From Escherichia phage Ecwhy_1: DNA of 64,000 bases. Location: the sequence record MH791411.1, one strand, 5' to 3'. The translations under genes and the position numbers were made by a program. The notes below the pieces were generated by a model, which saw only the letters and a list, made by a program, of their open reading frames with translations, was not told the origin of the DNA and did no database searches. Below are positions 6,953 through 45,885 of this stretch, in pieces. The stretch's first letter is position 1, and every line of letters starts with the position of its first letter.

Positions 6953-7876
6953 TTACTTAAAAGTATTTACGATTTCCAAAACACTTTCAAGATACTTAGC
7001 ATCAAAAGTTTCAGTAAATCCTGATGGTAACTCTTCAGTACTTACAACACCACTTTCAATGTATTGCTTGATGAACTTTTCCAATAATAATGGTTTGTTA
7101 CCATCCTCAAAGTAACGTTCTACCAGTACAGTGTGTTCAAAATCAGAATCACGGCTTTGTTCATGAATTCGCCTCTTCATGTCACCAGTAATTCCGTATT
7201 TGTAAACGACTTTTGAGTTATTAGATAGTTTTTGTACATAGAAATATCCAGGCTTTGATGGTTGATAACCATACTCACCACATGATGGACATCCTCTTCC
7301 TGCCATATGAGATTTGGGTATTTGTTTAAAGACACCATGTTCAGGACAAATAATATCCACATGTTCATCACTAGTCTTGTAATCCACCAAGCTATAATCA
7401 TACTTATGGTTATGGATAGGCGACACAAGTTCAATGAAACGTTCAGTACTTCTTCCACCTTTACCAGAACATATTCCACAACTAGTTTTTCCTTTTAATA
7501 ATGTTGCGGCTGATACTTCCCAATCATGAACATCATTTGGATCGTTGTGACATGTTACCGTCACTTTCCCATTACAATCACGTTGTCTTTTGTAGATAGT
7601 TTTTTCAAATGACAATGTTGGATGAATTGTTTTTACTTTCTCTATGAACGTTTCAGTTGTGTATGCTGTATTTTTTTGGCAAATATTACATCCCTTTGCA
7701 GTAGATCTTACAATTTGCATAGGAGTGATTTTGAAATAATGACCACCTTCCACACAATAAAGTTCAACCTGTTTATGTGCATTTATGTATACCATTTTAT
7801 CAAACAAATAAACCCCAGTGCCATATTTTTCATTCACCGTATTGATAAATTTTTCTTCATTTGGATTCATTGTCAT
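6953..7876 (-). CDS. zinc-ribbon repeat protein with C-terminal T5orf172/GIY-YIG-like domain (307 aa); putative homing-endonuclease-like nuclease
   Basis: Three tandem ~55-aa modules each ending in C-x2-C (GCNICQK, CGICSGKG, GCPSCGEYG) with conserved FIE...KYDYS...ICPEHG; C-terminal GYFYVQKLS...YKYGITGDMKRRIHE is GIY-YIG/T5orf172-like. Confidence 0.55.
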   Translation of the reverse strand: MTMNPNEEKFINTVNEKYGTGVYLFDKMVYINAHKQVELYCVEGGHYFKITPMQIVRSTAKGCNICQKNTAYTTETFIEKVKTIHPTLSFEKTIYKRQRDCNGKVTVTCHNDPNDVHDWEVSAATLLKGKTSCGICSGKGGRSTERFIELVSPIHNHKYDYSLVDYKTSDEHVDIICPEHGVFKQIPKSHMAGRGCPSCGEYGYQPSKPGYFYVQKLSNNSKVVYKYGITGDMKRRIHEQSRDSDFEHTVLVERYFEDGNKPLLLEKFIKQYIESGVVSTEELPSGFTETFDAKYLESVLEIVNTFK

Positions 7877-7935: not shown

Positions 7936-7966
7936 CAAAAAAGAAAAGGGACTCCGAAGAGTCCCT
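7936..7966 (-). terminator. rho-independent terminator after the major capsid gene
   Basis: GGGACTC-cgaa-GAGTCCC hairpin flanked by an A-run on plus (T-run on minus) and TATTGTTTTT on plus. Confidence 0.65.
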
Positions 7967-9220: not shown

Positions 9221-9278
9221 GTATGATATTATTTATAGAACTGAAAAATTTGATTATTAAAATGCTTTAAAATGTTTA
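9221..9278 (-). repeat. ~55-bp late-promoter cassette, copy A (second copy at 11978..12034)
   Basis: GTATGATATTATTTA...ACTGAAAAATTT...TTAAAA-GCTTTAAAA-GT is shared almost verbatim with 11978..12034. Confidence 0.6.
9230..9237 (-). promoter_or_regulatory. T4-type late promoter TATAAATA upstream of the capsid gene
   Basis: Exact TATAAATA on the minus strand about 45 nt upstream of the capsid ATG. Confidence 0.6.
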
Positions 9279-10391: not shown

Positions 10392-10457
10392 TCGTTCTCT
10401 CCTTTAAGTACTGAAATATCTGTACTTCAACATACAAATATTTATATTTTTAAAATG

Positions 10458-11109: not shown

Positions 11110-11943
11110 TTAGATTTTTGGTTGTGATTTTGGTAGTGGAGAACGAGATTTAGAAGCGGTATTTTTTGGCTTCGCAACATCTTTCATTTCGCCACGAGCA
11201 TTTTTACCTAGGTCTTCATCAGTGTGGGACATAGCATCTTCGTTTTCAAAATCATAATCTACTTGTTTTTCGGAAGCTTTAGCGAATTTCACTGGAGCAA
11301 CACCTTGAACTGGAGATTTAGCTTCTGGGGCAACTGGAGACTTGGTATTAACGCCAGCTTTTTCTTTCTTATCAACCGCAGCAACTTGCTTAAGTTTGAA
11401 AGACTCACCAACTTTCTCATCACCGAATTGTACATCAGCAAATTCGTCTTCAGATTCTTCACCATCAGCACCGAATTCTTCTTCCGCACCAACTTCAACT
11501 TCTTCGTCGTCAGAACCTAGGTCAACTTCATCACCACCGATTTCGTCAAACATTTGTTGTAGGCCACGGAAAGCATCTTGAATAGATTCCCATTGGTCTT
11601 CGGAAGGAACTTCTGCACCAACTTCTGCTTCAGCGTCAACTTCTTCGCCATCAGCATCAGCAGAGAATTCAACTTCTTCTTCTGCACTTTCATCTTCTTC
11701 ACCTAGGGTGTATTCGATTTCAGCATTTAGACCAGCGTCTGGTTGAACATCAAAGTCTTCGTCAAGTTTTTCTTCGTCTTTGACTTCAACTTCACATTCT
11801 TCTTCGTCCATGCTTTCTTCTAGTTCTTTATTGATTTCTTGAGCTTGCTCAACAAAGTACTTACGCATTTTTTTATCAGCAACATCTTGTTCGCCGTTTG
11901 CAAACGCTTCAATTGCTTCTTGTAGTAGTTTTAAATTCGCCAT
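11110..11943 (-). CDS. acidic prohead core / internal protein (~277 aa)
   Basis: Extremely acidic (long E/D runs); GGAGGA SD before the second ATG; occupies the T4 gp68-like position between portal and protease. Confidence 0.5.
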   Translation of the reverse strand: MANLKLLQEAIEAFANGEQDVADKKMRKYFVEQAQEINKELEESMDEEECEVEVKDEEKLDEDFDVQPDAGLNAEIEYTLGEEDESAEEEVEFSADADGEEVDAEAEVGAEVPSEDQWESIQDAFRGLQQMFDEIGGDEVDLGSDDEEVEVGAEEEFGADGEESEDEFADVQFGDEKVGESFKLKQVAAVDKKEKAGVNTKSPVAPEAKSPVQGVAPVKFAKASEKQVDYDFENEDAMSHTDEDLGKNARGEMKDVAKPKNTASKSRSPLPKSQPKI

Positions 11944-11977
11944 TATATCCTCCATAGATATATTACATTCATATAAA

Positions 11978-12034
11978 GTATGATATTATTTAGTACTGAA
12001 AAATTTCGCCATTTTTAAAAGCTTTAAAAAGTGC
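11978..12034 (-). repeat. ~55-bp late-promoter cassette, copy B (variant ACTAAATA core at 11987..11994)
   Basis: Near-identical to 9221..9278; the core motif sits 44 nt upstream of the 11943 ATG. Confidence 0.55.
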
Positions 12035-12043
12035 GATTTTTGT

Positions 12044-12271
12044 TTACATTAATCCTGAACCATCACCGGATGGTGCTGCTGCATAAACAACAGCGACAAC
12101 ATTTTTGCGTCGTTGTTCTTCATTAGCTTTAAATTCACGGTACTTTCTTAAATTATTAAGTACTTGTAATGTTAGTTTTGGTTTTCTGGAATCAGTAATT
12201 TTATATACGTTCTGATCATCTTCAGGGTCGTATAAAGAATCACTGCTAGATTCAAAGATGTCCTTTAACAT
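12044..12271 (-). CDS. small head-module protein (75 aa; gp67-like by position)
   Basis: ATG with AAAGGAGA SD; located between portal and core genes. Confidence 0.45.
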   Translation of the reverse strand: MLKDIFESSSDSLYDPEDDQNVYKITDSRKPKLTLQVLNNLRKYREFKANEEQRRKNVVAVVYAAAPSGDGSGLM

Positions 12272-12344
12272 TTCATCTCCTTTGAATATGCATTATAATG
12301 AGGGCAACTAATGTACCCTCATTCTTATACATTGTTATTTATGA

Positions 12345-14081
12345 TTAAAAAGAATCGCCTAAATTATTCGGGTTAAAACCTGCACTTCCTTGTTGTTCTT
12401 GGTATTCAGCATCGGCACTTTCTAAGTTACCGTCACCATCAATACCCAAATCCATACCAGGATCGTTAGGAGCATCTATACCAACAGATTGCAACCCAGC
12501 AGCATCTTCTTCACCACTTGACGGAGCGGAACCATCTTGTGGATTTTCTTGGAGCCACATTTGCTCATTCTTAACAATATCAGCTTTAGAGAAGCCCATT
12601 TTTTCAAGAATAGTTTGTTTTGCCATATATGGCAGATCGTTAAGTGGGAGATAGGTGTTAATTAGTTTAGCATCTAGTTCCGCTTTACGATAAGAAGCCA
12701 AGTTAATAGGTGGATTCATAATTACTTCAAAAGATGAAGTACTAATGTTATATCCATTTTTAACCATAAAACGTTTAAATTCTGCATCAAATAGTTTTGC
12801 AACTAAACGTTGATAACGCATACATTGGTTATTAAAACGTAATTCACTTGCCATTGCTTGTGTTGCACCATCACCGAATAGTGATACACCACCATCATCT
12901 GGACCTTGCGGTAGATATGAAGCTGGAATTTGCAATCCACGAATCAATTTATTGTTGAAGTAACGCAAGTCATCAATCTGACCTAAGTTATCACCACCTG
13001 GAAGTGTTTGTACATCTGAACCACGACCTTCAGAAGTTTGTGGGAAGAAGTAATCTTCTAGAATACTTAATGGATTATATGCTGCATCCATTAGAGAAGT
13101 ACTGCCACCTTTATTTGAAGGAATACGTCTTTGGTGAATTTCATTTTTGAATCGTTCTACGTATGCCATTGCTTGGTGAGTTTGCATATCACCAACGTCG
13201 ATTTTAAATACACGACGCTCTGGAGCACGTTGAACACGATAGATAATAATACTATCTTCAAGTAATTCTTTTTGTTTATAGACTTTGAAAACATCTTCAA
13301 GTATACTAGTACCAAAAGGCCAAACTCCATCTTGTCCTGTATTTAGGGTTAGATGAATTACGTGTTCTGCACCAACTGGAATAACATCAAGACGACCGTT
13401 AGTACTGAATGGGTCAGCAGAGTTTCCTTGGTTAGTAAAGCCAGATGCACCACCTGCTGCTACTGAACCACCGCCACCTAATGTGGTAGGGATTGCACCA
13501 GGATATGCAGTTTTGTCAAAACCAACTTGTAAGTTACTAAACACTTTATCTTTAAGATTCAAAGATACGTCACGGATATAATAAATTACAGGGGTTTTTC
13601 CGGTTGCTTCGTTAACGAATACTTGTTCAACGTTTTTTGGGCTTACCCAGTACCAGTCAAATGTTTCTGGGTCACGAATGAAGAATTGGTCACCGTATTT
13701 TAATAGGCCACGTACAATTTCATACATTCTGGTTTTAAAATCATTTTGTTCAGTCCATGCATCCAAACGGTCTTCAATAGTAGTTACTTCTGTATCACCA
13801 ATATCATCTTTATATTTGATTTTATATGGAAGACCAAAATCTTCAGTACTTTGTGTACAGAAGTCAGCAATGATATTAAGTGCTGTTCTAATTTCAGGAT
13901 CTTGGTCCATCTGTTCATACTGACTATAACGTTCAGTACGGTTAGCTAAACCATTGTATACTACTGGAAGATAGGAAGCGAAATTGGTTTTCGTTCCTGT
14001 TGATTTGTTGCTATTACTGGACTGATTAGGGACGACCGATAACTTCGATCTCCCCATTGTCATATGTCGTTTCCAACTCAT
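12345..14081 (-). CDS. 20: portal protein (gp20-like), 578 aa
   Basis: IIYRVQRAPERRVFKIDVGDM and DYFFPQTSEGRGSDVQTLPGGDNLGQIDDLRYF align to T4 gp20 [21 protein letters not shown] and [33 protein letters not shown] as recalled; AAGGA SD. Confidence 0.9.
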   Translation of the reverse strand: MSWKRHMTMGRSKLSVVPNQSSNSNKSTGTKTNFASYLPVVYNGLANRTERYSQYEQMDQDPEIRTALNIIADFCTQSTEDFGLPYKIKYKDDIGDTEVTTIEDRLDAWTEQNDFKTRMYEIVRGLLKYGDQFFIRDPETFDWYWVSPKNVEQVFVNEATGKTPVIYYIRDVSLNLKDKVFSNLQVGFDKTAYPGAIPTTLGGGGSVAAGGASGFTNQGNSADPFSTNGRLDVIPVGAEHVIHLTLNTGQDGVWPFGTSILEDVFKVYKQKELLEDSIIIYRVQRAPERRVFKIDVGDMQTHQAMAYVERFKNEIHQRRIPSNKGGSTSLMDAAYNPLSILEDYFFPQTSEGRGSDVQTLPGGDNLGQIDDLRYFNNKLIRGLQIPASYLPQGPDDGGVSLFGDGATQAMASELRFNNQCMRYQRLVAKLFDAEFKRFMVKNGYNISTSSFEVIMNPPINLASYRKAELDAKLINTYLPLNDLPYMAKQTILEKMGFSKADIVKNEQMWLQENPQDGSAPSSGEEDAAGLQSVGIDAPNDPGMDLGIDGDGNLESADAEYQEQQGSAGFNPNNLGDSF

Positions 14082-14093
14082 TATTGTTCGTCC

Positions 14094-16292
14094 TTAACTG
14101 TTTCTCTCACCTTGGGTGTTTTCAGAGATAGTTCTTAGATAATTATTTGTCTGTTGTACAGCAGATAGTGATTGTTCATTAACATCGGCAAGCTTTTTGA
14201 GTATTTCTTTCATTTCATCAGAAATCGGTGCTGGTGGTCCAGTTCTCGATGTCACTGCACTACCATTATTTATCATCTTCTTAATTGCCTCTGTATCGTC
14301 AGGTTTTGGTGGAACTGGTGGTTCACCTGGTGCCCATGCAGTTTTATCAAAATCTTTACGAGATACAGTTATTTCTGGAGCAACGTTATTGGTTTTTTCA
14401 ATAACAGGACGAATACGTTCTACTCCTGGACGGTTGAATAAACTGTCAGCATAATCAGATGGTAGTGGTTTTGGTTCTTTGTAGTTACGTGAGGTGTTCC
14501 ATTTGTTGAACTTATCCCACATCCCTGCAAAATAATCACTAACACTATTTACACCGTTGTCAATGATGTTGTTTACGCTTTCTGCTGGGGTTTCAGTACT
14601 GTTATTGAGTTTTATATCATTATCAGAACCACCACCGAACCAACTTTTAACAGAATTCCATAGGTTACCTGGTAAATCCATTAAGTTATTCATAAAGGTA
14701 TCAAATGCTTCTGACACTTTAGAGTAACCTGAACCGAATATATCTGCACCCAATCCATCCAACCAAGCTGTAAATTCAGCACCAATACGATCAAGGTAAG
14801 CAATTGCATCTTTAGCAATAGGTACTAACCCAAATCCATCAAGAGCCAATTCCCCAATAAACTCCCATGCACCATCAGTTCTGTCTGCAATGTCAGAAAG
14901 ATAATCCACAATTGAATTTTGTGTATTAGCATACATTGTATTAAATGGTTCAGTGAATTCTTTACTAATCCACATATTGAAGCGGTTAGTAAATTGAGTT
15001 AATTTATCAGCGGGATTATTTTTAGGTTCATTTACGGTTGCTTCCATATCCAATAGTTGTTGGTAGAAGGTTGCAGCAGTTGTGTTTCCTAATTGAATCT
15101 GGTTAAGCAAATCTTGCTTAATTAATTCTTTATTCTTTTTAACGAATTCTAATTGTTGGCGACGAATTTCTTGTGAATCAGTTACACCACTACGTACAAG
15201 ATTTTCACCTAAATCAGCGAACTGGTTCAGTACTGGAGTGAGTAGGTCATCCGGTACGCCACCAATAGACAATCTGTGTGATATCAAACGGAGGAAATCT
15301 GCACCTGCATCACCCATTGCACCCGCAGCTTCGTTGAACGCCTTAGATGTTGCTACAGCAGCTTTACTGGATAGTCCAGAGTAGTTCTGCAATGCAATTT
15401 GCATAGAACGAGTATCGAGTGATTTATCTAGGTTTTGCGTTTTGTTTAGTAATGCATCAACGGATTCACCCATACTTTTACTGAATTTAGTCATGCTCAT
15501 GATAAATTGTTCAGTACTTTTAGCTTGGTCCATACTACGAAGAGCTTCACGACCACCATATTGTTTTTGGAACTTAATGTTTCTTGCAGTTAAATCAGTT
15601 AATGTTTTTTGAGAAATACCATAAAGGCCAAGTTCATTTTGAGCTTGTTGAACAGTTCCTAATAATTTACCAAAGGTAGCAACACCATCACCATATGCCC
15701 CATCCAATTGAGCTACTACAGAACTATGTGTTTGTAGAGCTTCACTGAATGCATCCATACTCAACATAGATGCACCTGCACCTTTCAGTACTGAACCATA
15801 ACCTTCAGCCAATGCAACACCAGCACTGTTAATTCTGGTATATACTTCCAATTGTGCATTAAGTGCGTTATATACAGCAAGACCAGCACCAGTAACGAGT
15901 TTAAATGCTGCTGCCGCTGCACCAATTGGACCTGGCATCATTGCTAATGAACCAGCAAATGATGATGCACTAACGCCTAATGAGTTTACTACAGTACTTA
16001 CGTTCGTACTGGAGTTCATCATTGTTTTGCTTACATTGGAAACTTCAGAAGATAGTGATTTGAACAATTTACCAAATGCTTTCCCATCATCGGCTTGTGC
16101 ACTTCCACGATTTCCACGATTACTGGAAGAACTGGAACTGGAACCATTCTTTTTACTATTTGAACCTGATTTTTTCTTATCATTCTTTATATTTTCAGCT
16201 AATAACTCACGGATAGCAGTCAAACTATCATTGTTATCTTTAGTTTGATTAACCAACTGCTGTAGTAGGTAATCACTTGTATTGACAGCCAT
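14094..16292 (-). CDS. Gly/Ala/Ser-rich virion protein, tape-measure-like or internal/ejection protein (~732 aa)
   Basis: Start taken at MAVNTSDYLLQQ (AAGGGA SD); poly-Ser tract, Ala/Gly-rich helical segments typical of tape-measure proteins; immediately upstream of portal in the same operon. Confidence 0.4.
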   Translation of the reverse strand: MAVNTSDYLLQQLVNQTKDNNDSLTAIRELLAENIKNDKKKSGSNSKKNGSSSSSSSNRGNRGSAQADDGKAFGKLFKSLSSEVSNVSKTMMNSSTNVSTVVNSLGVSASSFAGSLAMMPGPIGAAAAAFKLVTGAGLAVYNALNAQLEVYTRINSAGVALAEGYGSVLKGAGASMLSMDAFSEALQTHSSVVAQLDGAYGDGVATFGKLLGTVQQAQNELGLYGISQKTLTDLTARNIKFQKQYGGREALRSMDQAKSTEQFIMSMTKFSKSMGESVDALLNKTQNLDKSLDTRSMQIALQNYSGLSSKAAVATSKAFNEAAGAMGDAGADFLRLISHRLSIGGVPDDLLTPVLNQFADLGENLVRSGVTDSQEIRRQQLEFVKKNKELIKQDLLNQIQLGNTTAATFYQQLLDMEATVNEPKNNPADKLTQFTNRFNMWISKEFTEPFNTMYANTQNSIVDYLSDIADRTDGAWEFIGELALDGFGLVPIAKDAIAYLDRIGAEFTAWLDGLGADIFGSGYSKVSEAFDTFMNNLMDLPGNLWNSVKSWFGGGSDNDIKLNNSTETPAESVNNIIDNGVNSVSDYFAGMWDKFNKWNTSRNYKEPKPLPSDYADSLFNRPGVERIRPVIEKTNNVAPEITVSRKDFDKTAWAPGEPPVPPKPDDTEAIKKMINNGSAVTSRTGPPAPISDEMKEILKKLADVNEQSLSAVQQTNNYLRTISENTQGERNS

Positions 16293-16437
16293 AACATTCC
16301 CTTTTAATAGATGTATTATAGAAATATTTATGAATCTATAACGAATAAAAAAGACCCATCTATAACATTTGTCCAATTTGTCCCATTTTTTGGTAATAAA
16401 TACTACAGAGACATTTATTACATGGAGATTTAATAAA

Positions 16438-17274
16438 ATGGCAATGAACCCACTAGCTAAGTATACTAAAATTGAAGAACTTGGTACAAAATTGGTCACA
16501 AATGGCGTGATTCCTTATAAAGAAGGAGTTCTTGGCTCTAAAGGTATCAAATGTGGCATTTGTGCTCGTAGTGCACGCGATGAAATGACACTCAATACAC
16601 CAGATATGCTTCTAAATGGTGATGCAATTGCTCGTGTTATTGAAAACTGCGTACCTAACGTACTTGATGCAGATGAACTTTATGTAAATGACGTAGAGCA
16701 ACTACTTATCGCTATTAAAGTAGCTTCTAAAGAAGAATCATATGATATTAATGTGACATGTCCTGAATGTAACAAAGAAGGCCGTTTTGAGCGTAGCTTA
16801 TCATATCTACTAGAAACAGCACAAACTTTCAGTGAAGTTCCTACTGTACAATTGGATAATGGACTAAGTTTAGAGTTTAGACCACTTACTTGGAAGGAAT
16901 ATTCTAACTTCGCAGAAAGAATGTTTACAGAACAACAAAAAACTAAATTCCTTGAAACTGCCGAAATGGAGCAGGAAGAAAAAGTTAAAGTGTTTGGTGA
17001 AGTATTTGAAAGTATGGCACAACTCAACTTTGATATGATCGCAGGAGTTATTGCTAAAGTAATTACTCCTGAAGGTGATGAAGTAACTGAAAACGAATTC
17101 ATTGCTGAATGGCTAGGTCAGCAGTCCAAAGGAACACTTAAAATAATTCGTGAAAAAATGGATGAAGTACTTGAAATTGGTGTTTCCCATACTATGGAAG
17201 TTGAATGCAGTGACTGTAATCATCAATGGGAAATTAATGGACTGAAATATGACCCAAGTCATTTTTTCGCATAA
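16438..17274 (+). CDS. hypothetical zinc-binding protein (~278 aa) with three C-x2-C motifs
   Basis: CGIC, CPEC and CSDC motifs; GGAGA SD; AATAAATA late-type motif upstream. Confidence 0.5.
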   Translation: MAMNPLAKYTKIEELGTKLVTNGVIPYKEGVLGSKGIKCGICARSARDEMTLNTPDMLLNGDAIARVIENCVPNVLDADELYVNDVEQLLIAIKVASKEESYDINVTCPECNKEGRFERSLSYLLETAQTFSEVPTVQLDNGLSLEFRPLTWKEYSNFAERMFTEQQKTKFLETAEMEQEEKVKVFGEVFESMAQLNFDMIAGVIAKVITPEGDEVTENEFIAEWLGQQSKGTLKIIREKMDEVLEIGVSHTMEVECSDCNHQWEINGLKYDPSHFFA

Positions 17275-22939: not shown

Positions 22940-22947
22940 TATAAATA
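22940..22947 (+). promoter_or_regulatory. T4-type late promoter TATAAATA for the baseplate operon
   Basis: Exact TATAAATA 36 nt upstream of the 22983 ATG. Confidence 0.65.
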
Positions 22948-24039: not shown

Positions 24040-26295
24040 ATGGCAGATTTACAAAGTTCTGTTGATAATTTTAAAAATGATATTTCAAACATCACAAGTT
24101 CTGCAAAGGCAGCAAAAGAAACTGCAACAAGTACTATTGAAAGCTTAAAAGCCACTGCTAATACTTTGCAAAATGATCTTGAAAAAGTAAAAAACAATTT
24201 TAAAGCTAAGGTTAGTAACGTACAGTCTTTACCAAAGCAAAGTGCAAGCGTTGACCAAGTGTATGAAGACTTGGATCTAAGTGAGTTTGTTATTCCTTAT
24301 GACAATAAATTGTTAAAGTATGACAATCCAACTTGGCACTTTTCCCTTTTCGCATTAGACAAGGATGATTTCAAAAACTTCTGGCTTTACCCAGATGCTG
24401 AAGTTCAACGTCATGTCATCTCTGAAAGTGGTGTAACTGGAAAGTATAATATCACAAGTGTTCAGATGACGCAAGCTGGTCCTTCAACTCCAGGGATGAC
24501 AACCAACTATTGCTTCAACACAGCAGTACTGAACCTTTCAGAAAACAATAGTATGAGTTTATATGATGAACTAATTTCTTTAAGTAATAAACTAAGGTAT
24601 CATAAGTTCATGGACTTACCTTTAATATTAGAATTGAAATTTATTGGATTCAATACTAATGGTGTACCTGAAACTATACCAGAAACAACTCGTAAATGGT
24701 CCGTGAAGATTAACAGTGTTACCGCTAGTGCATCACAAAGTGGTAGTACTATGATGTATTCTATGAGTCTTGTTCATAACCGTACTGCTCTAGTGGATAA
24801 CGTTGAATGGACTCTTAAAGAACCATTTAACTGCACAGCAGAAAACTTTGGTGATTTTTGTTTTGATTTGGAAGATAAATTGAATCAAATGGCAGACCAA
24901 CAATATGGTTATTTGCGTTATAAATTTGGTGAGTTAGCAGAAGGGAAGTTCTTTGAATTTAAAGTTGCACCAGATTTACAGGATTTGTTTATAAACTATG
25001 ATTCTAAACAGATGGCAGAAGCTGGAGCTACAAAAAGTGGTGCACAGGGTTCTAAAAACTTTTCATGGAATCCAAGTACTCCAATTTCTCGAATTATCGA
25101 TGACGTAATAGATACCTGTACTGTACAGGCTGATGATAGTACTAGTGTTCGTCAATTTGTTAATATAATCCCACTTAAACAGTATGTTGGATTTGATAAT
25201 TACCGAAACACGTCAGTTTATAAAGTTGTTTTCTATATAGTTCGTTTTAAAATTGGTGATATTGTTCATGAATCCGATTTACAGCCAGAAAACTTTACAT
25301 TTGAGTATTTCTTTGAAAATGCCGAGAAATATGTAGACCCAAATGACCAAAAACCAAAGATTAACATGAAAACTTACAATTATCAGTTTAGTGGACTCAA
25401 TAGTGAGATTCTAGACCTTGATTTGAAGTTTGACCAGCAATTCTTTGTGGCTACAACTCGTAACCCTGGACCAATACAGGATGTTGCTAACCACGCTGGT
25501 ACTCATACCTCCCAAGAATTGAATATACAAGGGGTTCAGTACAACAGTATACCAGATGCATGGGCAAAAACAAGTGATTTACGCGTTACACGTGATCTTG
25601 GTGGTATGTTAACACAGGCCCAGGAACAACTACTCAATAAAGTTGAAACTTTAGCAAAAGAACAAATGCAAGTTGGTAATGCTGAAGAACAGGATCGTTA
25701 TAATAACTATCAAGTAAACGTTCTACCACAGTATATTGAAGATTATGTAACCACATATGAAGAAAATGACGGTGGAACCGATGGAATTGGTCATCGATAT
25801 GGTGAAGTGTTTACAATGCCGACTGAAGCAACAAATAATGAAACAACATTGTCTGCATCATTGAACGATAACAGTAGCACATATGAAATGGATCGCCGTA
25901 AAATTCGTGACAACTATTACAATCGTCCATTCTTGTGTAAATTGGATATGCGTGTTGTTGGTGACCCATTCTGGTTGGGTTGGAGTGATTATTCATATAT
26001 CCAATATCTTGAACAGGTAATTAATGGGGAAGATATGGAAATTAATCCCGAAGATTACCATGTTGCTAACTATATTACATCTGAAGCATATCTTTTATTG
26101 AAATTACAACCTGTGGTTTCTATAAATGATAATACTGGTGTTCTTGATATTAATACACCAACTACATTTAACCAAACTGTATATCGTGTTAACAAAATTG
26201 TTCATGATTTTGGTGCAGGTGGTTCATTTACACAACAAATTCAGGCTGCAATTGTAATTCGTGCACTCAAACGTCACGATAGTATAATTGAATAA
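24040..26295 (+). CDS. baseplate hub-like structural protein (751 aa)
   Basis: N-terminal coiled coil; lies immediately upstream of the spike gene as hub proteins usually do. Positional inference. Confidence 0.35.
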   Translation: MADLQSSVDNFKNDISNITSSAKAAKETATSTIESLKATANTLQNDLEKVKNNFKAKVSNVQSLPKQSASVDQVYEDLDLSEFVIPYDNKLLKYDNPTWHFSLFALDKDDFKNFWLYPDAEVQRHVISESGVTGKYNITSVQMTQAGPSTPGMTTNYCFNTAVLNLSENNSMSLYDELISLSNKLRYHKFMDLPLILELKFIGFNTNGVPETIPETTRKWSVKINSVTASASQSGSTMMYSMSLVHNRTALVDNVEWTLKEPFNCTAENFGDFCFDLEDKLNQMADQQYGYLRYKFGELAEGKFFEFKVAPDLQDLFINYDSKQMAEAGATKSGAQGSKNFSWNPSTPISRIIDDVIDTCTVQADDSTSVRQFVNIIPLKQYVGFDNYRNTSVYKVVFYIVRFKIGDIVHESDLQPENFTFEYFFENAEKYVDPNDQKPKINMKTYNYQFSGLNSEILDLDLKFDQQFFVATTRNPGPIQDVANHAGTHTSQELNIQGVQYNSIPDAWAKTSDLRVTRDLGGMLTQAQEQLLNKVETLAKEQMQVGNAEEQDRYNNYQVNVLPQYIEDYVTTYEENDGGTDGIGHRYGEVFTMPTEATNNETTLSASLNDNSSTYEMDRRKIRDNYYNRPFLCKLDMRVVGDPFWLGWSDYSYIQYLEQVINGEDMEINPEDYHVANYITSEAYLLLKLQPVVSINDNTGVLDINTPTTFNQTVYRVNKIVHDFGAGGSFTQQIQAAIVIRALKRHDSIIE

Positions 26296-28984: not shown

Positions 28985-28992
28985 TATAAATA
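28985..28992 (+). promoter_or_regulatory. T4-type late promoter TATAAATA for the lysozyme gene
   Basis: Exact TATAAATA 18 nt upstream of the 29010 ATG, preceded by TTTCAGTAC as at the capsid promoter. Confidence 0.6.
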
Positions 28993-33507: not shown

Positions 33508-33553
33508 ATCATAAATAAATCAAATGAATGAACGAATTATATGGAGTCCAAAA

Positions 33554-36500
33554 ATGACTAATAATTTTAAGTTTCAACCTACACAGATGGCTGAAGCAGT
33601 ACAGAAGAAGCTTTTCATAAAAAGATTGCCTGAGTGGATGCAAGGCTTAGAAGATATTCAGAAAGTCAGTGATGATGTTATCCAACAATGGTTTAATCCG
33701 GCTGAAAACGAATTAGTTGACGGCTACATTGGTGACATGGGTTCTCCGGCAGCAGCAGGGAACATCTTCTTACACGAGTCAACAGTCGCACGTCAACTAT
33801 ATCAGTTGTCCACTGCGTATGTCTCAAGAAATGATGACTCCAGCATTCGTTCAATTCAATTTTATGATGATCTAGTTGGCTATATGAATCATTACGGTGC
33901 ACTAACCGAAAATGAAAGCCGTTTGTTTAATGGTAAGTTCTATTCATGGACCCCACCAATTAACCCAAATAAAATGAACAACTACAGTTCATACCTATGG
34001 GATTCCAAGAATAGCTATAATATCACAACTCCAGATTATATTGTAATGGAACGTGGTGCAGAAAATGGTAACACTTGGTCACTACAAAACTTCTGGTACA
34101 CATTAGGTGAAACTTTAGAAGATGGTACTATCCTAACTGAAGAACTAATGCAAGATTCCCGTTTTGTTCGTGCTCGTGCACCAATTATCGAATACAATAA
34201 AAATATCGAACTAATGAACTACGGTACTAAATTCCGTGGGACAGTTGATTTGTTCTCTGATATTATTAAACCTGAAGATATCGTACAAAAAGATATTAAC
34301 AGCGGTATACGTATTGATGGTATTATTCCACAAGATGGTATGCGTATTCTTTTCACCAGTATTGGTAACAATGGTGAAAACAACCGAATTTATAAAGTAT
34401 ATGTTAAACGTATGCAAGATGGAACACGTGTGTATGGTCTAGCATTAGATCCAGACGAAGAATCTGAAAGCCGTCCGAGTGGTGAACCACAAGATGGTGA
34501 CGTAGTTCTTATTATCAAAGGTAATGAATTTGGTAACAGTTCCATGTATTGGGACGGTTCTCATTGGATTCAAGCACAGTCTAAAACTTCTGTGAACGTA
34601 TTTCCACAATTCCAATTGTATGACCGTAATGGTGTTAAACTAAACAACACTACTACCTATCCATCAAGTACTTTTACTGGTTCTTCACTATTTGGTTTTA
34701 AAATTAACTATAATTATGCAACTGATAGCGTTTATGGTTATAATATTGAACTAGGTGATTACAATTATTACACATATGAGAATTTCCTACAATCAACTCG
34801 TTATACTTACGAGCATTTGGGTGTGGAAGTTGAAATTGATGGACTATATTACTATAACGTAATTGGTGAAGGTAATACAATGAACCTAGAAACTGATTGG
34901 GTTCGTAGTACTGAATACTCCAAACAATATGTTAAACAAACTCCACAGGTTGAACGTACAGTAATGTTCCGCGTGTTCAGTACTGTTTATGACATGGAAA
35001 GTTTCAAAGACCCAGTTGAAGGAATGTATGCTTATGTAATTGAAGTTGACAGAACTTATCAATATTACAAAGCAGAACGTGAAACATATCTTGATTGGCA
35101 TGTTATCGTTGGTGATGGGGTACAAAGCGTTAAGTACAATCATACATTTGAATTGGCACAAAAAGTACTAGATAATTCTGATGATATTATCGAACTAGTT
35201 GTTGATGGTGTGGAAATAAAAGAATACACCAAAACTGTAGTTAATAATCAAGTACAAAGTATTACAATTGATAGCTCTGTTGATTTGGATGAAGATTCTG
35301 TTGTACAAATCAGAACTTATAGTAGCACTATCACTCCTAATAAAGAGTTGGGTGCATATGAAGTTCCAATTAACCTACAAAATAACCCATATAATTCAAA
35401 CATTGAATACATCAACCAAGGTGATTACACCCTGCACTTCCAAGATATTATTCAAAAGAATATTACATCTGGTTCTGCTGATGACTTTAACAATTACGAA
35501 GAACGTTTGGCTGCTGGTTTGGTTAATAATGGTGTAGGCACTAAAATTATTCAAAACGAAGCGTCCATGTTACCACTAATGGCACATACCGCTAATGAAG
35601 ATATTGATTTGTTTGAATCAATCATGTTTATGCAAGCAGAATACTTCCGCTTCATTAACAAGTTCAACACTCAAATGCTTCGTTTGTATGAAGAAGACCC
35701 AAGTGCTTTTCTTGGTAATAGTGCATCAAACATCGTAGATGCGATTCTAACAGCTATTAATATGGGACGTGATAGTACATTCCCATTCTACTATGACAAC
35801 GTTGCAAGCACTGCTGGGTTTATTCGTGCATTTGTCCCACCAACTCCACAGTTCTTGGGTATTTTGCAAGCTTATACACCACAAAAAGCAACATTCTTAA
35901 CTGCTGGTAGTAAATCTAGCTGTTATAATATCAGTCATACTGGTATTATTTCAAAAGCATACCGTGTTATCAATGGTGTTGATAAAATGGATGACGTAGT
36001 TTTTGAATTGGAAAATCGTATCTTTAATAGTATTGATCTTACTTTCAAGGATATTGATTATAAACCAGTACTAAACAGTGAAGACCTATTCCCAACTCCA
36101 TATTTCACTGGTACTGATTATAGTGCAGAAGAAAAGAAAACTCTATTACTACGTGGTTACATTAACTTCACAGCAACCAATGGCATTAGTAACAGTACTC
36201 ATGATTATGATGCAAATAACTGGAGAACTTGGAACTATACTGGTAGTTATTATGTTGTTGATGGTCAACGTACTGAAATTCCTGCTCGTGGTTCATGGCG
36301 TGCAATCTATACTGACCAATATGGCACATATCGTCCAGCAACCCATCCGTGGGAAATGATGGGCTTCTCTCAACGTCCTACTTGGTGGAACCAAGAATAC
36401 GAACCAACCGCAGTTCAAGTTGGTGAACGTGAGGGTGATGTTGTTTATGTGTATGAAGCACTAGTAATGAATGAAAATGGTGATTTGGTCCCAAGTGGAT

Positions 36501-39500
36501 TGTGGGATATTGATGGTACTATCGGTGATAGCAGTACTGGTACTATTTTGTCAGGTGAACGCCGTGGTCAATATGACAAATACAAGCGTTTCGGTGTACA
36601 GCCATTTAAAATCACTAAGACTGGCGAGAAAACCAGTACTGGTATTGATATTTGTGAAGTTGAGTATATTGCACCTGAAGTTTTAGGTCTTGTTAGTGGT
36701 AATTTAGATCATCGTGCAGAACCGTGGTCTTATGGTGACATGGGTGACATGGAATTCACTTACATGAACACTGCGATGTTTGCTTATGACCAAATGCTTC
36801 TTCTATACAAAGCAAAACCAGCACAGTTTGCAAACTATTACTGGGATACCCGTAATGATAACCTTAAACCAGTTTATACTGATGGTTCACAGTTCCTTTA
36901 TGGTGAAACTCGTAAGCGTCTAAACTTTGACAGTACTACATTAGTACATGGTGAGAAAAACACCCGTACTATCGGTTATCAAATGTTTGTTAGTGACTAT
37001 TTGATGTATCAGAATAAGAACATTACCACCAAATACGGTGACGTTGTTCGTTCTTCTTATGTCAATGTCGCTCACAAAATTGGTGGCTTTACTAAAGCAG
37101 ACCAATTGACATTCACTGCTAAATCTTTCGGTTTGATTTCACAAGAAAACCAAACTATCGGTCTAGTTCGTTCCAATAACATTCGCGATGAGCAAATGAG
37201 TGCAGTAAAAATTACTTGGAATGGTAGTGCATATCAAATTGATGGTTATGATTTAGTTGGTGCTAAATTTAAATATAAAATTCCAGTTAAAAATGGAAGA
37301 AAAGTAACTCTTAAATTGGAAGACAGAACTGTTGTTCATTACAATGAATGGAAATCTGAAGGTACATTAGAATATGGTAAAATATTCAATACATACCAAG
37401 AAGTTTATACTTTCATTTGTGGATATGGTGAATATCTAAAAGAACATGGCTGGATTTTTGAAGATGTAAATGATAGTGGTACTCAACAAGACTGGACAAC
37501 TATTGCTAAAGACTTTGTTATTTGGAGTCAGAATAATTTAAGTACTGGTGAGTTCATCTCCTGCACTCCAAGTGCAGCTAATGCTAAATTTGGTGCGGAT
37601 TTTGGTTCAGTTCAATCTGTTACACAGAATAGTGGTGGTGTTTGGTCACTACTCGATGATGAAAACCAAGGTATCCGTCAATATGAAATCGAAACTTCGC
37701 GTATCGGTAACGTATTCACAGTGAGAACTACATCTGAATCACAAAAACGTATGGCGTTGATTCGTTTGAGCCTAAGTTCATATGAACACGCAGTTGTTTT
37801 TGATGATAAAACTATCTTTGGTGATTACATTTACCAACCAACTTATGGTGCTATTCAAGAATTGATTAAAATGTATGGTTACATTACTGGGTCATGGACT
37901 GGTCGCCTACAAGCACCTGGTTTCATTATCCTAGAAGCAGGAACTTTACCATCATTTGAAAAATTAGTAACTGATTTTGAATTATATTATAATAGTGAAA
38001 CTCCTGTGAGTGATGTTCAGCTTCAAGAGTTATCAAATCACTTGATTGGCTATCAAACTCGTGATTATCTACAACGTATGATTAGTAGTGATGTTAGTCG
38101 TGTTGATTTCTATAAAGGATTCATTCATGACAAAGGTACTAACCAAGTAATGGAAAAAGTACTACGCGTTTCTAAATCTTACGACACTGATGAATATAAA
38201 GCACTTCAGGAATGGGCATTTAAGATTGGTACTTATGGTAATATCAATGGTAAGAAAAATCTACAATTTAAACTAATCAATGACCAATTTAAACAACAAC
38301 CACAGATGGTTTCGTTTGATGTTAATGCTACATCAAATGGTACTGGTAATGGTATTGTTTATTACGGTGAACAAGGGGTTGACTCACGCTGGATTACTCG
38401 TCCAAATGGTAAGTTTTCATTCCCAATGCGTAGTGGAAGAAGTGAGAATATCCAACTTCCAGACATTGGTCCTGTAACACTAGATGAAATTTCATACGTT
38501 ACTAAAGATTTCAGTACTGCATATAATGATCGTATCAATTATATGAATAACAGTGGTGAAATCCCAGATTCTGTATGGATGTTTAAAGATGGTAATGATT
38601 TGTGGAATATTTTCGAACTAGTAGACACTGAAGTTGAGATGCTCTCTATCGTTCCAATTGAAAATACCGATGTATATGCAGAACAATTCTGTAAAGTAAC
38701 TCTAAGTGATGATATCCCACTAAATGATGGTGATTATTATTACTTTGTTGATGAAACTAACTTTATGCCAGATACATTGACTATAGAAAGTCAATATTAT
38801 ACTGCGGGTAATGACCCTAGAGTTATGGTAGTTCCGTTTGACACTTCAATCACTATTGACTTCACTGATCCTGATACTCGCCCACGCTTGTATCGTTATG
38901 TTTCACGATTCAGTACTGAAGAGATGCGTCAGGAATACATTGACAGAAAATATAGTTTTAAAGCTCCACAAAGTACTTTGTTTGACCGCCCAACCACATA
39001 TGATGAGCGTACTAACATTACTGCGTTGTACCTAAACGTGTTTGACCCAATCAACGGTGTTATTCCTGGTGCAGCGATGCAGAACGTTACCTACACATCT
39101 CCAGTTGACCCAGCACAATACAACAGCAATGGTGAATTGATTCAAGCATGGGGTGCTGATAAAGTTGGTCAGGTTTGGTGGAACACCAGCACTGCTTTCT
39201 ACTTAGATTACACTCGTGCAATCTATGATGCTGATGGTAATGTGGATGTTGATGCAACAAATGAATATAAACGTTATAACTGGGGCAGATTGCTACCGCA
39301 CAGTACTGTTGATGTTCTTGAATGGGTATGTTCACCAGTTGAACCATATAACTGGGACAAATACTGCAAAGACGTTGCTAACAAAAATAAAAACAACACT
39401 ATGTACCTACCAAGCGGAACCGCATTGGAAGATAATTATAGTACGTTCTTAGAATATGATAGCACAACTGATACTTATGTTACAAAATACTATTTCTGGG

Positions 39501-42500
39501 TTCGTGATACAATCTATGTACCACCATTGCATTCCAGAACTAAATCTTGTACTGATATTGCTCGTATTATTAAAGAACCAGCACAGCTTAACATTCCTTG
39601 GTTTGCACCAATCAATGAAAGCTCGTTCATTCTAAGTAATATGCAATTTGAAGTCAACGATGACACAAGTATTTTAACTGTTTCTTATTACATGGATAAT
39701 ACTGAAGTTATTAAACATGACCAGTATCAATTATGTAAAGAAGGTGATAGCTATAACTTCAATCCATCAATCTGGACTTCTATGTGGAATTCTATGATTG
39801 GTCAAGAAACTACTGAATCAGGAACTGTTATTGATTTACTATATCCTTTAGTACCAAACGGTTTAGGTTCTAATAAGACTTGGTTCCAAGATGTAATTGA
39901 AGCTCGTAGAAACTTTGTAGAAAGTGCAAATAACTATTATCGCTCACAGAATATAACAACTAACACTGTTCTAATGGACGAAGTGTTTAATGTTAAAACT
40001 ACTGAAGTTAACCCGAATGAAGTATCATATCGTGTACTAACTTACAATAGTGAATTAGTCATTGCACCTGAAAGTGACAAGTTCAAAGAAAACGACGCAG
40101 TACTAGTAAGTACTAGTGGTGTATTACCTAACCCACTATCAACTAGCTCTGTATATTTTGTGCATATTGATGCTAATGGTTATATTCATCTAATGAATAG
40201 TCCATCAAGTGCTGGTAGTGTGGTTACCATTACATTGGAAAACCGTGGTGAAGGTCAACAGAAAATGATTAAACAATCAGACTATGTTGAAGCACTAGGA
40301 ACTTCATTGGACATGACCCAGTACTGGTCACTAGCAGATTGGTATGATATTGGCTACGATAAAAATACTGCATATACACAAGAATCCAGCCTAGAAGATG
40401 CAAACACTAAGAACTATCAAGTTGGTGACATTATCAGAATTACAGATGTTGATGGCATCTGGACATTGTACATTAAAGCACAATCACGTGATTCAGTTTA
40501 CTGGAAAGCAATTGGTCGTGAAAATAGTACAGTTGAATTGAATGATATGTTATACGCTGACTATACAGTTCGTGATGCTAATGGTTCGTTGAGTAATCGT
40601 GAGATTAACGTTCGTAAAGCACTAGCTTTATTGAAGAACTCATTCGACTTACATCAGAGTGAAATTGTGTTTGATATGGTTAAGTATGTTCACGTAGAAC
40701 AAAGCGTTGTTGATTGGGTATTCAAAACATCTTACATTTATATTGTAGGTTTAGAACAATCATTAGTACAGAACTATTCCAACGACAACTTGATTAATCA
40801 AATCGTTGAGTACTTTGAAGAAGTTAAACCATATAGAACTAAGATTCGTTCCCAGATTGAACAGAAAACTTCAGATGATGATTTAATTAAAGGTTTGTGT
40901 AATGATTTAGATCCTAATGGCTATATATTTGCAGATGGGACTTGGGTTAAAACGGAAAAAGACATTTGGGATTATGAATATGCTCAATTCAATGAGGTAA
41001 CTCAACGTTGGGAGCAAGTTGGTGAATTGCCAAGTGATTTCGTAACACCTAATCGCCGTTTCCAAGAAATTGATGTTATCATGCACTACGACAACACTCA
41101 ATGTAAACCAAATGATAATTTGGCAAGTGTTGATGTATTGGAAGAAGTGAATAAGAAATATCAATCTAATGCACAAGATGTTGTTAGTAATTTTGAATTA
41201 CAACGTTACAAATATACATTCCCAGAATACAGTGATGAAGATTTCGACCTATTGGTTGCTTATCAGATGCAATTGTATTACCCAGAATTGAACGTAACTC
41301 TAGGGATTGCTTACGGTGTTAACCAATGGTATGCAGACCATGCAGATGATTTGGTAGCAACCGCAGAATTCACAGAAACGTTGAATCGTGTATATAAAGA
41401 ATCAACACAAAATGAAATGTTTAATGACGTAAATCATTATGTTCAGTATAACACACTCTCTAACCGTTTGAAATTGTACACAGGTGCAGATGATGAAGTA
41501 ATTCATGATGAGGTTGGATGTGGATTTAGTGGGTTAACCTATGATGATAATCCAAGCACCAGACTACCGTTTGGTTATGCATCCAGTACTGATTATAACT
41601 TTGGTTACTTTGAAGTTAGTAGTGAGTTGTATAAAAAGTATGTTTCTTTAATTAAAGAAAACAATACTACTGCAACTGATGATGAAGTTAGAATTATACT
41701 TGAAGTTGAATATGGTGTTTATTCATATCGCCATGTAGATGAAGATGGAAATCAACGATTCTACAATGACGCAATTCATGTATTGTCTGGTATGCGTGGT
41801 TTGTATGACAAAGATGCTACCGACCATTATGAAAAGGCTGAAGAAATACTAAGTAGAATGCCTATTGATATTCATGCATTTACTATGATGCCACGAAAAT
41901 ATGTTTATGTTAATGTTAATGGTGTATACGAGAGTATCCCAGATGACCAAAGCATTGATGATTTCATGGAAGACAAATTCATAACTGACGGTCAACTAGT
42001 TCAATTGGCAGAAATAAATCTTGATGACTTACCTCTTGATAGAAATAACCCAATGTACAGTGATTATCAGCACATCCTAGATAGCATCACCGATGCTAAG
42101 TACTACGATGATATGAATGCATTTGATAACCTAGCACTTGAATCACAAACTTCCGAGTTAAAATGGGAAGTTGAAGGTGACGAAGTAGATCCGTACATAA
42201 TCGACATTTCTGATATTAACCCATCAGGAAGAAAGATTGGTCAGATTCGCTTCACAGTTGATGGTTATGGATTCAATAGTGTTTCACTAGTTCAATTGAG
42301 AGACAATAGTAGATATAAAACTGAAGGTATGGTTATCATCAACCCTTATAAAACAACAGAAGCAATTGTTAGTATTCCTTCTTACGCTAAGATTGAAAAT
42401 GATATTAGTAAATCATACAGTAAGTATGATGAAAAATACTTCTATAAAATTAAATCAATTGTTAGTGATACAGAAGCTGAAGTAATTGACAATACCCTAT

Positions 42501-45847: not shown

Positions 45848-45885
45848 GTATTCTCCTAAATGAGTAGTCACTCTAATTAATAAAC

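Follow-up and report, generated by a model that had tools for sequence, protein, structure and literature searches.

In phage T4, whose tail sheath is about 92 nm long and made up of 23 rings, the tape measure is gp29, a protein of 590 aa. Its gene is located between those of gp28 and gp48 in the cluster 27-28-29-48-54, and genes 26, 51, 27, 28 and 29 are kept together. Another class consists of the TP901-1-type tape measures (PF10145, PhageMin_Tail, and PF20155, TMP_3), which are siphophage proteins with upstream chaperone genes, while Pb2 of T5 is both a tape measure and a pore-forming straight-fibre protein with a C-terminal peptidase. Proteins of the head interior offer a further comparison, namely IPI-III, Alt, gp67 and gp68 of T4 and the inner-body proteins of phiKZ. 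Like phiKZ, the 121Q/phAPEC6 group has an inner body.

The protein considered here has 732 aa and is encoded in a 64-kb stretch of jumbo E. coli myophage DNA (the window), which is 99.5% identical to the phages fEgEco12, EC.P1 and BF17; the protein itself is 100% identical to proteins of fEgEco12, EC.P1 and vB_Ec-M-J. It is probably the tail tape measure protein, i.e. the tail-length ruler, of a RaK2/121Q-type jumbo coliphage; its action as a ruler, the number of copies, the docking partners and the role at the membrane are inferred. As gp29, it is a long, mostly helical and Cys-free virion protein of a T4-superfamily myophage with a hydrophobic stretch (central or N-proximal), is encoded not far from hub genes 26 and 27, and is expected to fill the same role. 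However, it differs in size and has no detectable sequence relationship to gp29, and its gene is flanked by those for a gp26-like protein and the portal, with no gp28-like gene identified next to it. With the TP901-1-type proteins, the one class for which a similarity, though weak, has statistical support, its family shares a helical architecture, peptidoglycan hydrolase domains embedded in some members, and a recurring motif of the type SK..G.S.D.L..K in the core. On the other hand, the family stays below every Pfam tape measure threshold, the significant alignment falls outside PF10145, and no chaperone genes are seen upstream at this locus. T5 Pb2 is likewise a long helical protein with hydrophobic segments and a possible envelope role, but the Pb2-type C-terminal peptidase is missing here. 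What the protein has in common with the head-internal group is that its gene stands in line with those for portal, core, protease, scaffold and capsid; unlike the T4 internal and prohead-core proteins, it lacks a conserved protease or targeting motif and is scarce or absent in two out of three proteomes.

Gene organization and hub neighbors

The ORF and its translation agree exactly with the coordinates and the length proposed in the first-pass annotation, and the gene is situated on the minus strand, which had been left unstated. The start codon is the ATG at 16292, while the mechanically called ORF extends on to a GTG at 16499. Upstream of the Shine-Dalgarno-like sequence, 33 nt from the ATG, is CATAAATA, which might, speculatively, be the late promoter of this gene. 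Exact TATAAATA sites occur four times in the window, each just upstream of a late structural gene, and the scaffold and capsid genes are each preceded by such a motif.

Only 12 nt separate the stop codon from the start of the portal gene on the same strand. The portal gene is followed, still on this strand, by a 75-aa gene and the genes for a 281-aa virion protein, a Peptidase_S77 prohead protease, a 371-aa scaffold-like protein and the Gp23 major capsid protein, and the tape measure candidate is physically the first gene of a head-gene run, in keeping with the earlier description of it as directly upstream of the portal and head genes (12-nt gap, Pfam matches). When terminator-like hairpins were sought downstream of it, none was found before 7947-7966, i.e. 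past the capsid gene. Given the shared strand, the short gap and this lack of a hairpin, co-transcription with the head genes is suggested by the sequence, and transcription of the gene would probably start at a late promoter and take in the portal gene as well.

On its other side, the gene stands back-to-back with a gp26-like baseplate-hub gene, which was taken to start at ATG 16438 in view of the sequence and of the annotated fEgEco12 record. Six loci with distant family members (889-1356 aa, profile E-values 1e-8 to 1e-17) were examined, and in all six the homolog adjoins a gp26-like hub gene with PF12322, while in five it is found directly upstream of Portal_T4. In one of these relatives, L022, a gp27-like hub gene is also contiguous with the pair. 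The pairing with the gp26-like gene and the gp27-like contiguity in L022 therefore place the gene, together with the gp26-like gene, in a hub/tail-initiation cluster abutting the head module, the candidate being situated at the edge of this cluster. The first reading had called this an unusual placement for a tail ruler; considering the recurrence of the arrangement in the distant relatives, it is less odd than claimed. A large T4-related jumbo clade, with contigs up to 572 kb, has its putative ruler beside the gp26-like gene and portal and outside the T4 27-28-29-48 cluster. In the window itself, the gp48-, gp53-, gp27- and gp5-like genes are at least 6.6 kb away (22.9-29 kb).

The candidate screen covered the 64-kb window out of a genome of about 375 kb, and within the window the gene is, as expected for a tape measure, encoded with tail and hub genes and without another candidate in the cluster. 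The only nearby rival, a 751-aa protein annotated as a virion structural protein, was ruled out, as it folds as a gp27-like hub: its AlphaFold2 model is mixed alpha/beta (pTM 0.61), and Foldseek matched it to T4 gp27, VgrG and other phage hubs with E-values of 5e-6 to 4e-4. This hub protein may rather be the partner of the C-terminus of the tape measure candidate.

Table 1. Coordinates of the tape measure candidate, its segments and its neighbors in the 64-kb window.
Feature	Position	Strand	Basis or remark
CDS of the 732-aa protein, putative tape measure	14094..16292	minus	ORF; stop codon 14094-14096
Shine-Dalgarno-like AAGGGA	16298..16303	minus	read from sequence; 5 nt before ATG 16292
CATAAATA, possible late promoter	16325..16332	minus	one mismatch to the T4 late-promoter core TATAAATA
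Conserved N-terminal helix, residues 1-36 (MAVNTSDYLLQQL...IRELL)	16185..16292	minus	conservation 0.78, alignment A1
Ser7 tract, residues 51-57	16122..16142	minus	within variable G/S/N/K-rich spacer 37-75; conservation 0.47 in A1
Gly/Ala-rich hydrophobic segment, residues 95-145 (...AGSLAMMPGPIGAAAAAFKLVTGAGLAVYNAL...)	15858..16010	minus	conserved family-wide
Helical core, residues 146-345	15258..15857	minus	best-conserved block in A1 and A3
Aromatic-rich helical region, residues 421-602	14487..15032	minus	weak, specific tape measure similarity
Pro-rich variable linker, residues 556-690	14223..14627	minus	lowest conservation, 0.40 in A1; many indels
Conserved C-terminal helix, residues 691-732 (...QTNNYLRTISENTQGERNS)	14097..14222	minus	conservation 0.71
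T4-type portal gene (context only, outside the tail ruler)	12345..14081	minus	Pfam Portal_T4, E 3e-112
gp26-like (T4) baseplate-hub gene, 278 aa, divergent from the candidate	16438..17274	plus	Pfam PF12322 T4_baseplate, E 1e-23; PHROG 150 'baseplate hub'
751-aa gp27-like baseplate hub, rival ruler candidate	24040..26295	plus	AlphaFold2 and Foldseek

Protein segments and proposed mechanism

In an AlphaFold2 model of low confidence (mean pLDDT 47.6), the protein is 72% helix with no strand, which bears out its earlier description as helical; pLDDT values of 60-86 are confined to the helical core. At the resolution of such a model, it has the long, mainly helical shape without a globular beta fold that is expected of tape measures. 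The description as Gly/Ala/Ser-rich and of low complexity was overstated for the protein as a whole, with 27% of these three residues compared to 21% for the remaining large ORFs, and applies to residues 51-200 only, where the content reaches 44-46%. Similarly, the poly-Ser tract that had been pointed out is present as seven serines but is not conserved across orthologs: it belongs to the least conserved sequence, and the orthologs have G/N/P/S spacers there instead.

The overall architecture is one of two conserved termini flanking a variable Pro-rich linker and a hydrophobic Gly/Ala-rich segment. The highest Kyte-Doolittle window of the protein, 1.52 at residues 123-141, does not reach the usual membrane-helix cut-off of 1.6. 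In the C-terminal helix, L719, R720, I722, N725, T726, R730 and N731 are invariant, and the C-terminal motif is kept even in the distant member P0179. An 11-residue periodicity of aromatics, a tape measure hallmark in mycobacteriophages, is absent. Nor is the N-terminal (L/I)-x-E targeting/protease site of T4-type head proteins conserved among 13 orthologs; the protein has IRE (27-29) and LAE (31-33), which might act as such a signal, but the P1 Glu is replaced by Asp or Gln in three to four of the 13.

The mechanism proposed is modeled on T4 gp29 and further tape measures. A small number of extended copies, helical for the most part, would dock via the conserved C-terminus in the gp27-like/gp5-like hub, the C-terminal helix thus presumably being the docking end within the baseplate hub and the N-terminal helix the one on the tail-terminator side. 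The tail tube could then polymerize around these copies up to the conserved N-terminus, where terminator proteins would cap it, and the tail length would thereby be fixed. At infection, the protein would exit the tube before the DNA, and its Gly/Ala-rich hydrophobic segment may aid in crossing the envelope. Part of this task could fall, in some relatives, to a lysozyme or peptidase domain within the protein: when 107 distant members were scanned, about 10 turned out to carry lytic domains (Phage_lysozyme2, Phage_lysozyme, VanY, Peptidase_M15 or CHAP), one of them the L022 homolog, encoded at the same locus as the window protein.

At 0.15 nm per residue, an all-helical chain of 732 aa would span 110 nm, to be compared with published lengths of 94 nm (25 rings) for the phAPEC6 sheath and 123 nm for the CBB tail; the orthologs from phages of known morphology are all similar in length.

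Similarity to other proteins and existing annotations

Similarity outside the family is weak but specific and, judged from sequence and profile comparisons, appears to point only to tape measures. Database-wide, the family profile matched P0181 with an E-value of 5e-9. P0181 carries both PF10145 and PF20155 and is a bona fide TP901-type member (PF10145 at 61 bits, cut-off 33). With hhalign, the family aligned to it with 83% probability at residues 524-598, outside the PF10145 domain. As controls, five other proteins of the window, two of which are rich in helix, did not exceed 0.5%, nor did shuffled sequences exceed 0.3%; the conserved core gave only 19% against the PF10145 region. In addition, a tblastn search with the RaK2 ortholog as query found the tape measure of Microbacterium phage Franklin22 (E 0.02), which aligns at residues 421-602, and every Foldseek match with a named function in BFVD was a tape measure or a minor tail protein.

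Searches against curated families and structures were less productive. A Pfam scan of the protein at E<=0.01 had no match, tape measure models included, and at E<=1 a scan of 56 members of the family brought up coiled-coil noise only and no PF10145, while the 107 distant members yielded one sub-threshold TMP_3 match (E 1.3e-4). No homology to T4 gp29 was detectable, either by BLASTP (E>1) or by hhalign to an eight-member gp29 alignment (8.7% for alignment A3 and 2.5% for A1). The sequence gave only noise against the PDB, and Foldseek found no match there for the low-confidence, helical model. The family profile did match the tape measure chains 9h4p, 8vjh and 8v3w, the first two at residues 421-602; since designed helical bundles ranked higher, composition evidently contributes, and these matches were not taken as homology. 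Likewise, the 'tape measure' PHROG matches among distant members were discarded, as they are located in fused lysozyme/peptidase domains outside the shared core; the lone 'internal virion lysozyme motif' match is also inside a fused lysozyme domain. Homology to a non-structural protein, on which the first-pass annotation would have withdrawn its proposal, was not found.

The full-length match of the protein is to PHROG 14121, 'virion structural protein' (E 3e-297). In GenBank, identical and orthologous proteins are labeled 'hypothetical', 'virion structural', 'major capsid protein', 'pore-forming tail tip protein' or 'tape measure'; 121Q gp597, for example, is a 'structural protein'. The tape measure prediction is already known from public records and the RaK2 paper: the RaK2 GenBank record, submitted in 2012, points to a tape measure, several later records annotate it so, and the 2013 paper lists the ortholog among the tail genes. 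The finding is thus ordinary and by itself of little consequence, and what the analysis supplies is a reasoned basis for an inconsistently used label. In the Atu_ph07 paper, gp701 is called a 'tail tape measure protein' and placed near the lysozyme gene, a label that is absent from the deposited Atu_ph07 record.

Alternative functions and virion data

Of the two functions that had been offered originally, a tail ruler or a head-internal or ejection protein, the former is favored by the hub synteny and the tape measure similarity and the latter is disfavored. We also considered that the protein could be associated with the tail lumen or hub without setting tail length, for instance as a plug or by forming a pore at the tip of the tube, the real ruler being encoded elsewhere in the genome. 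We regard this as unlikely. It would agree with the fEgEco12 label ('pore-forming tail tip protein; pb2'), with the hydrophobic Gly/Ala-rich segment and the lytic domains of relatives, and with an examination that covered 64 kb of the genome. Moreover, the phAPEC6 and T4 sheaths are of near-equal length (94 and about 92 nm) even though the protein is 140 aa longer than gp29, so that a proportionality of lengths is not evident. Nevertheless, the relationship to T5 pb2 that the label implies was rejected (hhalign 0.7%), the baseplate cluster has just one other long candidate, the gp27-like hub, and the wide length range of the family (about 600-1550 aa) is expected of a ruler. In known systems, a protein that fills the lumen and forms a pore is the tape measure itself.

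Quite improbable, in our view, is a portal-proximal internal or ejection protein, co-expressed with portal and possibly part of the inner body along the portal axis, which would enter the head by way of the prohead core and leave it with the DNA, aiding passage across the envelope, tail length in this clade being set otherwise. In podoviruses, too, ejection proteins can have hydrophobic segments and domains of the lysozyme or peptidase type, and these features of the family would fit such a role, as would the position at the head of the run leading from portal to capsid. Bubblegrams of 121Q and phAPEC6 revealed an inner body of 91 x 18 nm with unassigned protein composition (PMC7247149), and the authors on phAPEC6 state that no protein of that phage resembles any phiKZ inner-body protein. 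Against this function, the linkage to the gp26-like gene is tighter than that to portal, with a gp27-like gene contiguous in L022, and the IRE and LAE motifs are not conserved. Furthermore, the named similarities outside the family are all to tail tape measures and none to an internal virion protein, and apart from PHROG 14121 no PHROG, hence no internal-virion family, was matched at E<=0.01.

The published virion proteomes bear on the same question. Orthologs are reported from virions of CBB, phAPEC6 and 121Q, and absence from virions, which would have counted against the original proposal, is thus not what the literature indicates. In two of the three proteomes, however, little or nothing was seen of the ortholog: mass spectrometry did not reveal gp088 in RaK2, and for gp231c of phAPEC6 there was a single peptide (1.4% coverage), whereas an inner-body component is expected to be abundant. 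This low detection fits few copies per virion. CBB is the exception and speaks for the head interior, as the coverage of CBB_251 (29 peptides, 50%) is one of the highest for a protein of this virion, far above that of the gp5-like hub protein of the three-copy type (3 peptides, 4%). If the tape measure assignment is true, there is one candidate fewer for the inner-body proteins of 121Q and phAPEC6.

Within the family of the candidate, 363 distant relatives were recruited through the helical core, with alignments to profile positions of about 60-340. A repeated, word-indexed search with the family profile gained only four further proteins, and no relatives of P0051 and P0048 were found in IMG/VR. 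The protein diverges faster than its 751-aa hub neighbor, with 35% compared to 56% identity to RaK2, a difference that speaks for the tape measure function. A putative ruler without detectable homology to gp29, although the neighboring genes are all of T4 type, is compatible with either very fast divergence or displacement by a siphophage-type tape measure.

Genomic setting and transcription

The phage is a jumbo myophage of E. coli and falls within the RaK2/121Q group. The gene for the 732-aa protein, which the first-pass annotation had placed directly upstream of the portal gene, proved to be real, with a gap of 12 nt between its stop and the portal gene; its mechanical reading frame reaches further, up to a GTG at 16499. 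On the same strand, the portal gene is followed by a 75-aa gene and the genes for a 281-aa virion protein, a Peptidase_S77 prohead protease, a 371-aa scaffold-like protein and a Gp23-type major capsid protein, i.e. the T4 order 20-67-68-21-22-23. Since no terminator-like hairpin was found between the 732-aa protein gene and the end of the capsid gene, co-transcription with the head genes appears plausible from the sequence. Directly 3' of the capsid gene, a GC-rich hairpin with a perfect 8-bp stem and T-runs on either strand is likely a bidirectional terminator closing the head-gene run. Exact copies of the T4 late-promoter core TATAAATA are not above chance in number, and all four lie in sense just 5' of late structural genes (capsid, scaffold-like, gp48-like and lysozyme). 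A copy with one mismatch is situated 33 nt ahead of the ATG of the 732-aa protein gene.

Features of the window and of related records
Feature	Position	Strand	Remarks
307-aa ORF	6953-7876	-	treble-clef zinc finger (DUF4379)
Hairpin	7947-7966	both	
TATAAATA, exact	9230-9237	-	
TATAAATA, exact	10439-10446	-	
T4-type portal gene	12345-14081	-	Pfam Portal_T4, E 3e-112
732-aa protein gene	14094-16292	-	ATG 16292, preceded by AAGGGA
TATAAATA, one mismatch	16325-16332	-	
T4 gp26-like baseplate-hub gene	16438-17274	divergent from 732-aa protein gene	PF12322
TATAAATA, exact	22940-22947	+	
751-aa 'virion structural protein'	24040-26295	+	between gp53-like and gp5-like genes
TATAAATA, exact	28985-28992	+	
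Giant ORF	33524-43525	+	3333 aa
ClpB-like protein	43559-45871	-	770 aa; AAA_2, AAA, ClpB_D2-small
Giant ORF	55958-60892	+	1644 aa
Orthologue in OQ708376.1 (Escherichia phage vB_EcoM_CRJP21)	195547-197748		
Intein-split portal gene, L004 (572 kb)	12907-16671		
Intein-split portal gene, L005 (226 kb)	13073-15793		
Intein-split portal gene, L022 (27 kb)	11775-13928		
CRISPR_assoc locus, L005	20327-22482		PF08798, weak Csf3 matches

Protein properties and earlier records

Described previously as Gly/Ala/Ser-rich, the protein merits this only at residues 51-200 (44-46%); overall the claim was overstated, with 27% G+A+S vs 21% in other large ORFs of the window. The poly-Ser tract exists (Ser7, residues 51-57), but lies within the least conserved spacer and is not retained in orthologues. 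The helical nature was borne out by an AlphaFold2 model (13-sequence alignment; 72% helix, no strand), albeit of low confidence (mean pLDDT 47.6, with 60-86 only at residues 150-420). Three parts are conserved, namely the N-terminal 36 residues, a block at residues 76-345 with a Gly/Ala-rich hydrophobic segment and a helical core, and the last 42 residues (…NNYLRTISENTQGERNS), while residues 556-690 form a variable Pro-rich stretch. By analogy, the hydrophobic segment is a candidate membrane-interaction part; its hydropathy maximum of 1.52 is under the usual membrane-helix threshold.

Identity over the gene is 99.5% to fEgEco12, EC.P1 and BF17, and about 81% to PBECO4 and 121Q. The protein has a full-length match in PHROG 14121 ('virion structural protein', E 3e-297) and none among the Pfam families. 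Labels on identical or orthologous proteins vary between hypothetical, virion structural, 'major capsid protein', tail tip and tape measure, e.g. 'pore-forming tail tip protein; pb2' in fEgEco12, 'tail length tape measure protein' in vB_Ec-M-J, 'putative tape measure protein' in pEa_SNUABM_47 and 50, and 'structural protein' for gp597 of 121Q. The 'major capsid protein' label in OQ708376.1 is evidently a mis-annotation. The GenBank entry of RaK2 carries the remark 'similar to Enterococcus phage phiFL4A gp48 tail tape measure protein', and in the 2013 paper ORF088 was grouped with the tail genes, the similarity being described as very low (PMC3622015). A tape measure prediction has thus been in the public record since 2012-2013 and will not surprise the specialist; no experimental assignment of the ruler was found in the literature searched. 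Virion proteomes are strongly at odds over the orthologues: CBB_251 gave 29 peptides and 50% coverage (PMC5259590), phAPEC6 gp231c (79.7 kDa) one peptide and 1.4% coverage (PMC7247149), and RaK2 gp088 was undetected by mass spectrometry (PMC3622015).

Probable tape measure role and alternatives

The best-supported reading, which we consider probable, is that the 732-aa protein is the tail tape measure protein. Comparison with known tape measure families gave a weak match to P0181, a bona fide TP901-type tape measure with PF10145 above threshold (E 5e-9 against the family profile, for a 5.8-billion-sequence database). In hhalign, P0181 aligned with residues 524-598 at 83% probability, as against at most 0.5% for five other window proteins (two helix-rich) and at most 0.3% for 30 shuffles of P0181; the conserved core reached only 19% against its PF10145 region. 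A Microbacterium phage tape measure from outside the family matched the same C-terminal half of the RaK2 orthologue (tblastn, E 0.02), and all functionally named BFVD matches of the poor model were tape measure or minor tail proteins. No similarity was found by hhalign to the T4 gp29 family (2.5-8.7%), although the morphogenetic gene set is otherwise T4-type, or to T5 Pb2 (0.7%), and no Pfam tape measure model matched the family. Foldseek found nothing in the PDB. Close relatives have no solved structures, and the capsid protein matched only T4 in the PDB. Tape measure chains from the PDB in the profile search were given no weight, because designed helical bundles scored above them.

A search of 1.84 billion representative proteins with the 13-orthologue profile (E<=1e-3) returned 363 relatives, mostly of 600-1550 aa, sharing mainly profile positions about 60-340. 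Six distant relatives (889-1356 aa, one on a 572-kb contig) were inspected in their contigs. A PF12322 gp26-like gene adjoins the relative in all six, and in five the relative itself lies immediately 5' of a Portal_T4 gene, with protease and Gp23 following. In L022, the gp27-like, gp26-like, relative and portal genes are contiguous in this order, the first encoding a homologue of the 751-aa protein (hhalign 98.7%). Together with the T4 cluster of genes 26, 51, 27, 28 and 29, this synteny favours viewing the gene as the final one of a hub cluster next to the head module, and not as head-gene-like. Lysozyme, VanY, M15 or CHAP domains in about 10 of 107 distant relatives scanned, one at the same locus, point to a protein reaching the cell wall.

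The 751-aa protein, encoded near the place held by gene 29 in T4, was rejected as the ruler. Its AlphaFold2 model (23-sequence alignment, mixed alpha/beta, pTM 0.61) matches T4 gp27, VgrG, phi812, P1 and Mu hub proteins in Foldseek (E 5e-6 to 4e-4), by which it is a gp27-type baseplate hub; an N-terminal coiled coil spans about 50 residues. It is 56% identical to its RaK2 counterpart vs 35% for the much less conserved 732-aa protein.

By analogy with T4 gp29 and further tape measure proteins, the protein would be present in a few extended helical copies, with the conserved C-terminus fixed in the gp27-like/gp5-like hub and the conserved N-terminus at the top end of the tube. These copies would act as the template for some 100-110 nm of tube and would exit first during infection. 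That the protein instead occupies the lumen or tip and has no length-measuring role seems unlikely. Between the two options of the first-pass annotation, the unusually placed tail ruler is the better supported: a head-internal or ejection protein, a similarly unlikely reading, would suit the gene position, the inner body of 121Q and phAPEC6 (PMC7247149) and the high CBB coverage, but is opposed by the near absence from the RaK2 and phAPEC6 proteomes, (L/I)xE motifs that are not conserved, a closer association with hub genes than with portal, and remote similarities that are exclusively tail-type.

Other features of the window and related loci

The 307-aa ORF directly 3' of the capsid gene lacks a counterpart of its size at this position in the fEgEco12 annotation, and could be an insertion of a mobile or homing type. 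Both giant ORFs, the longer one directly 3' of the gp6-like wedge gene, are without a Pfam match, and a ClpB-like gene with two AAA+ domains is located between the baseplate and sheath-region genes. In three distant relatives the portal gene is split by an intein (Portal_T4, Intein_splicing, Portal_T4), and one of these, a 226-kb phage-like contig, carries the CRISPR_assoc locus about 5-7 kb downstream of portal.
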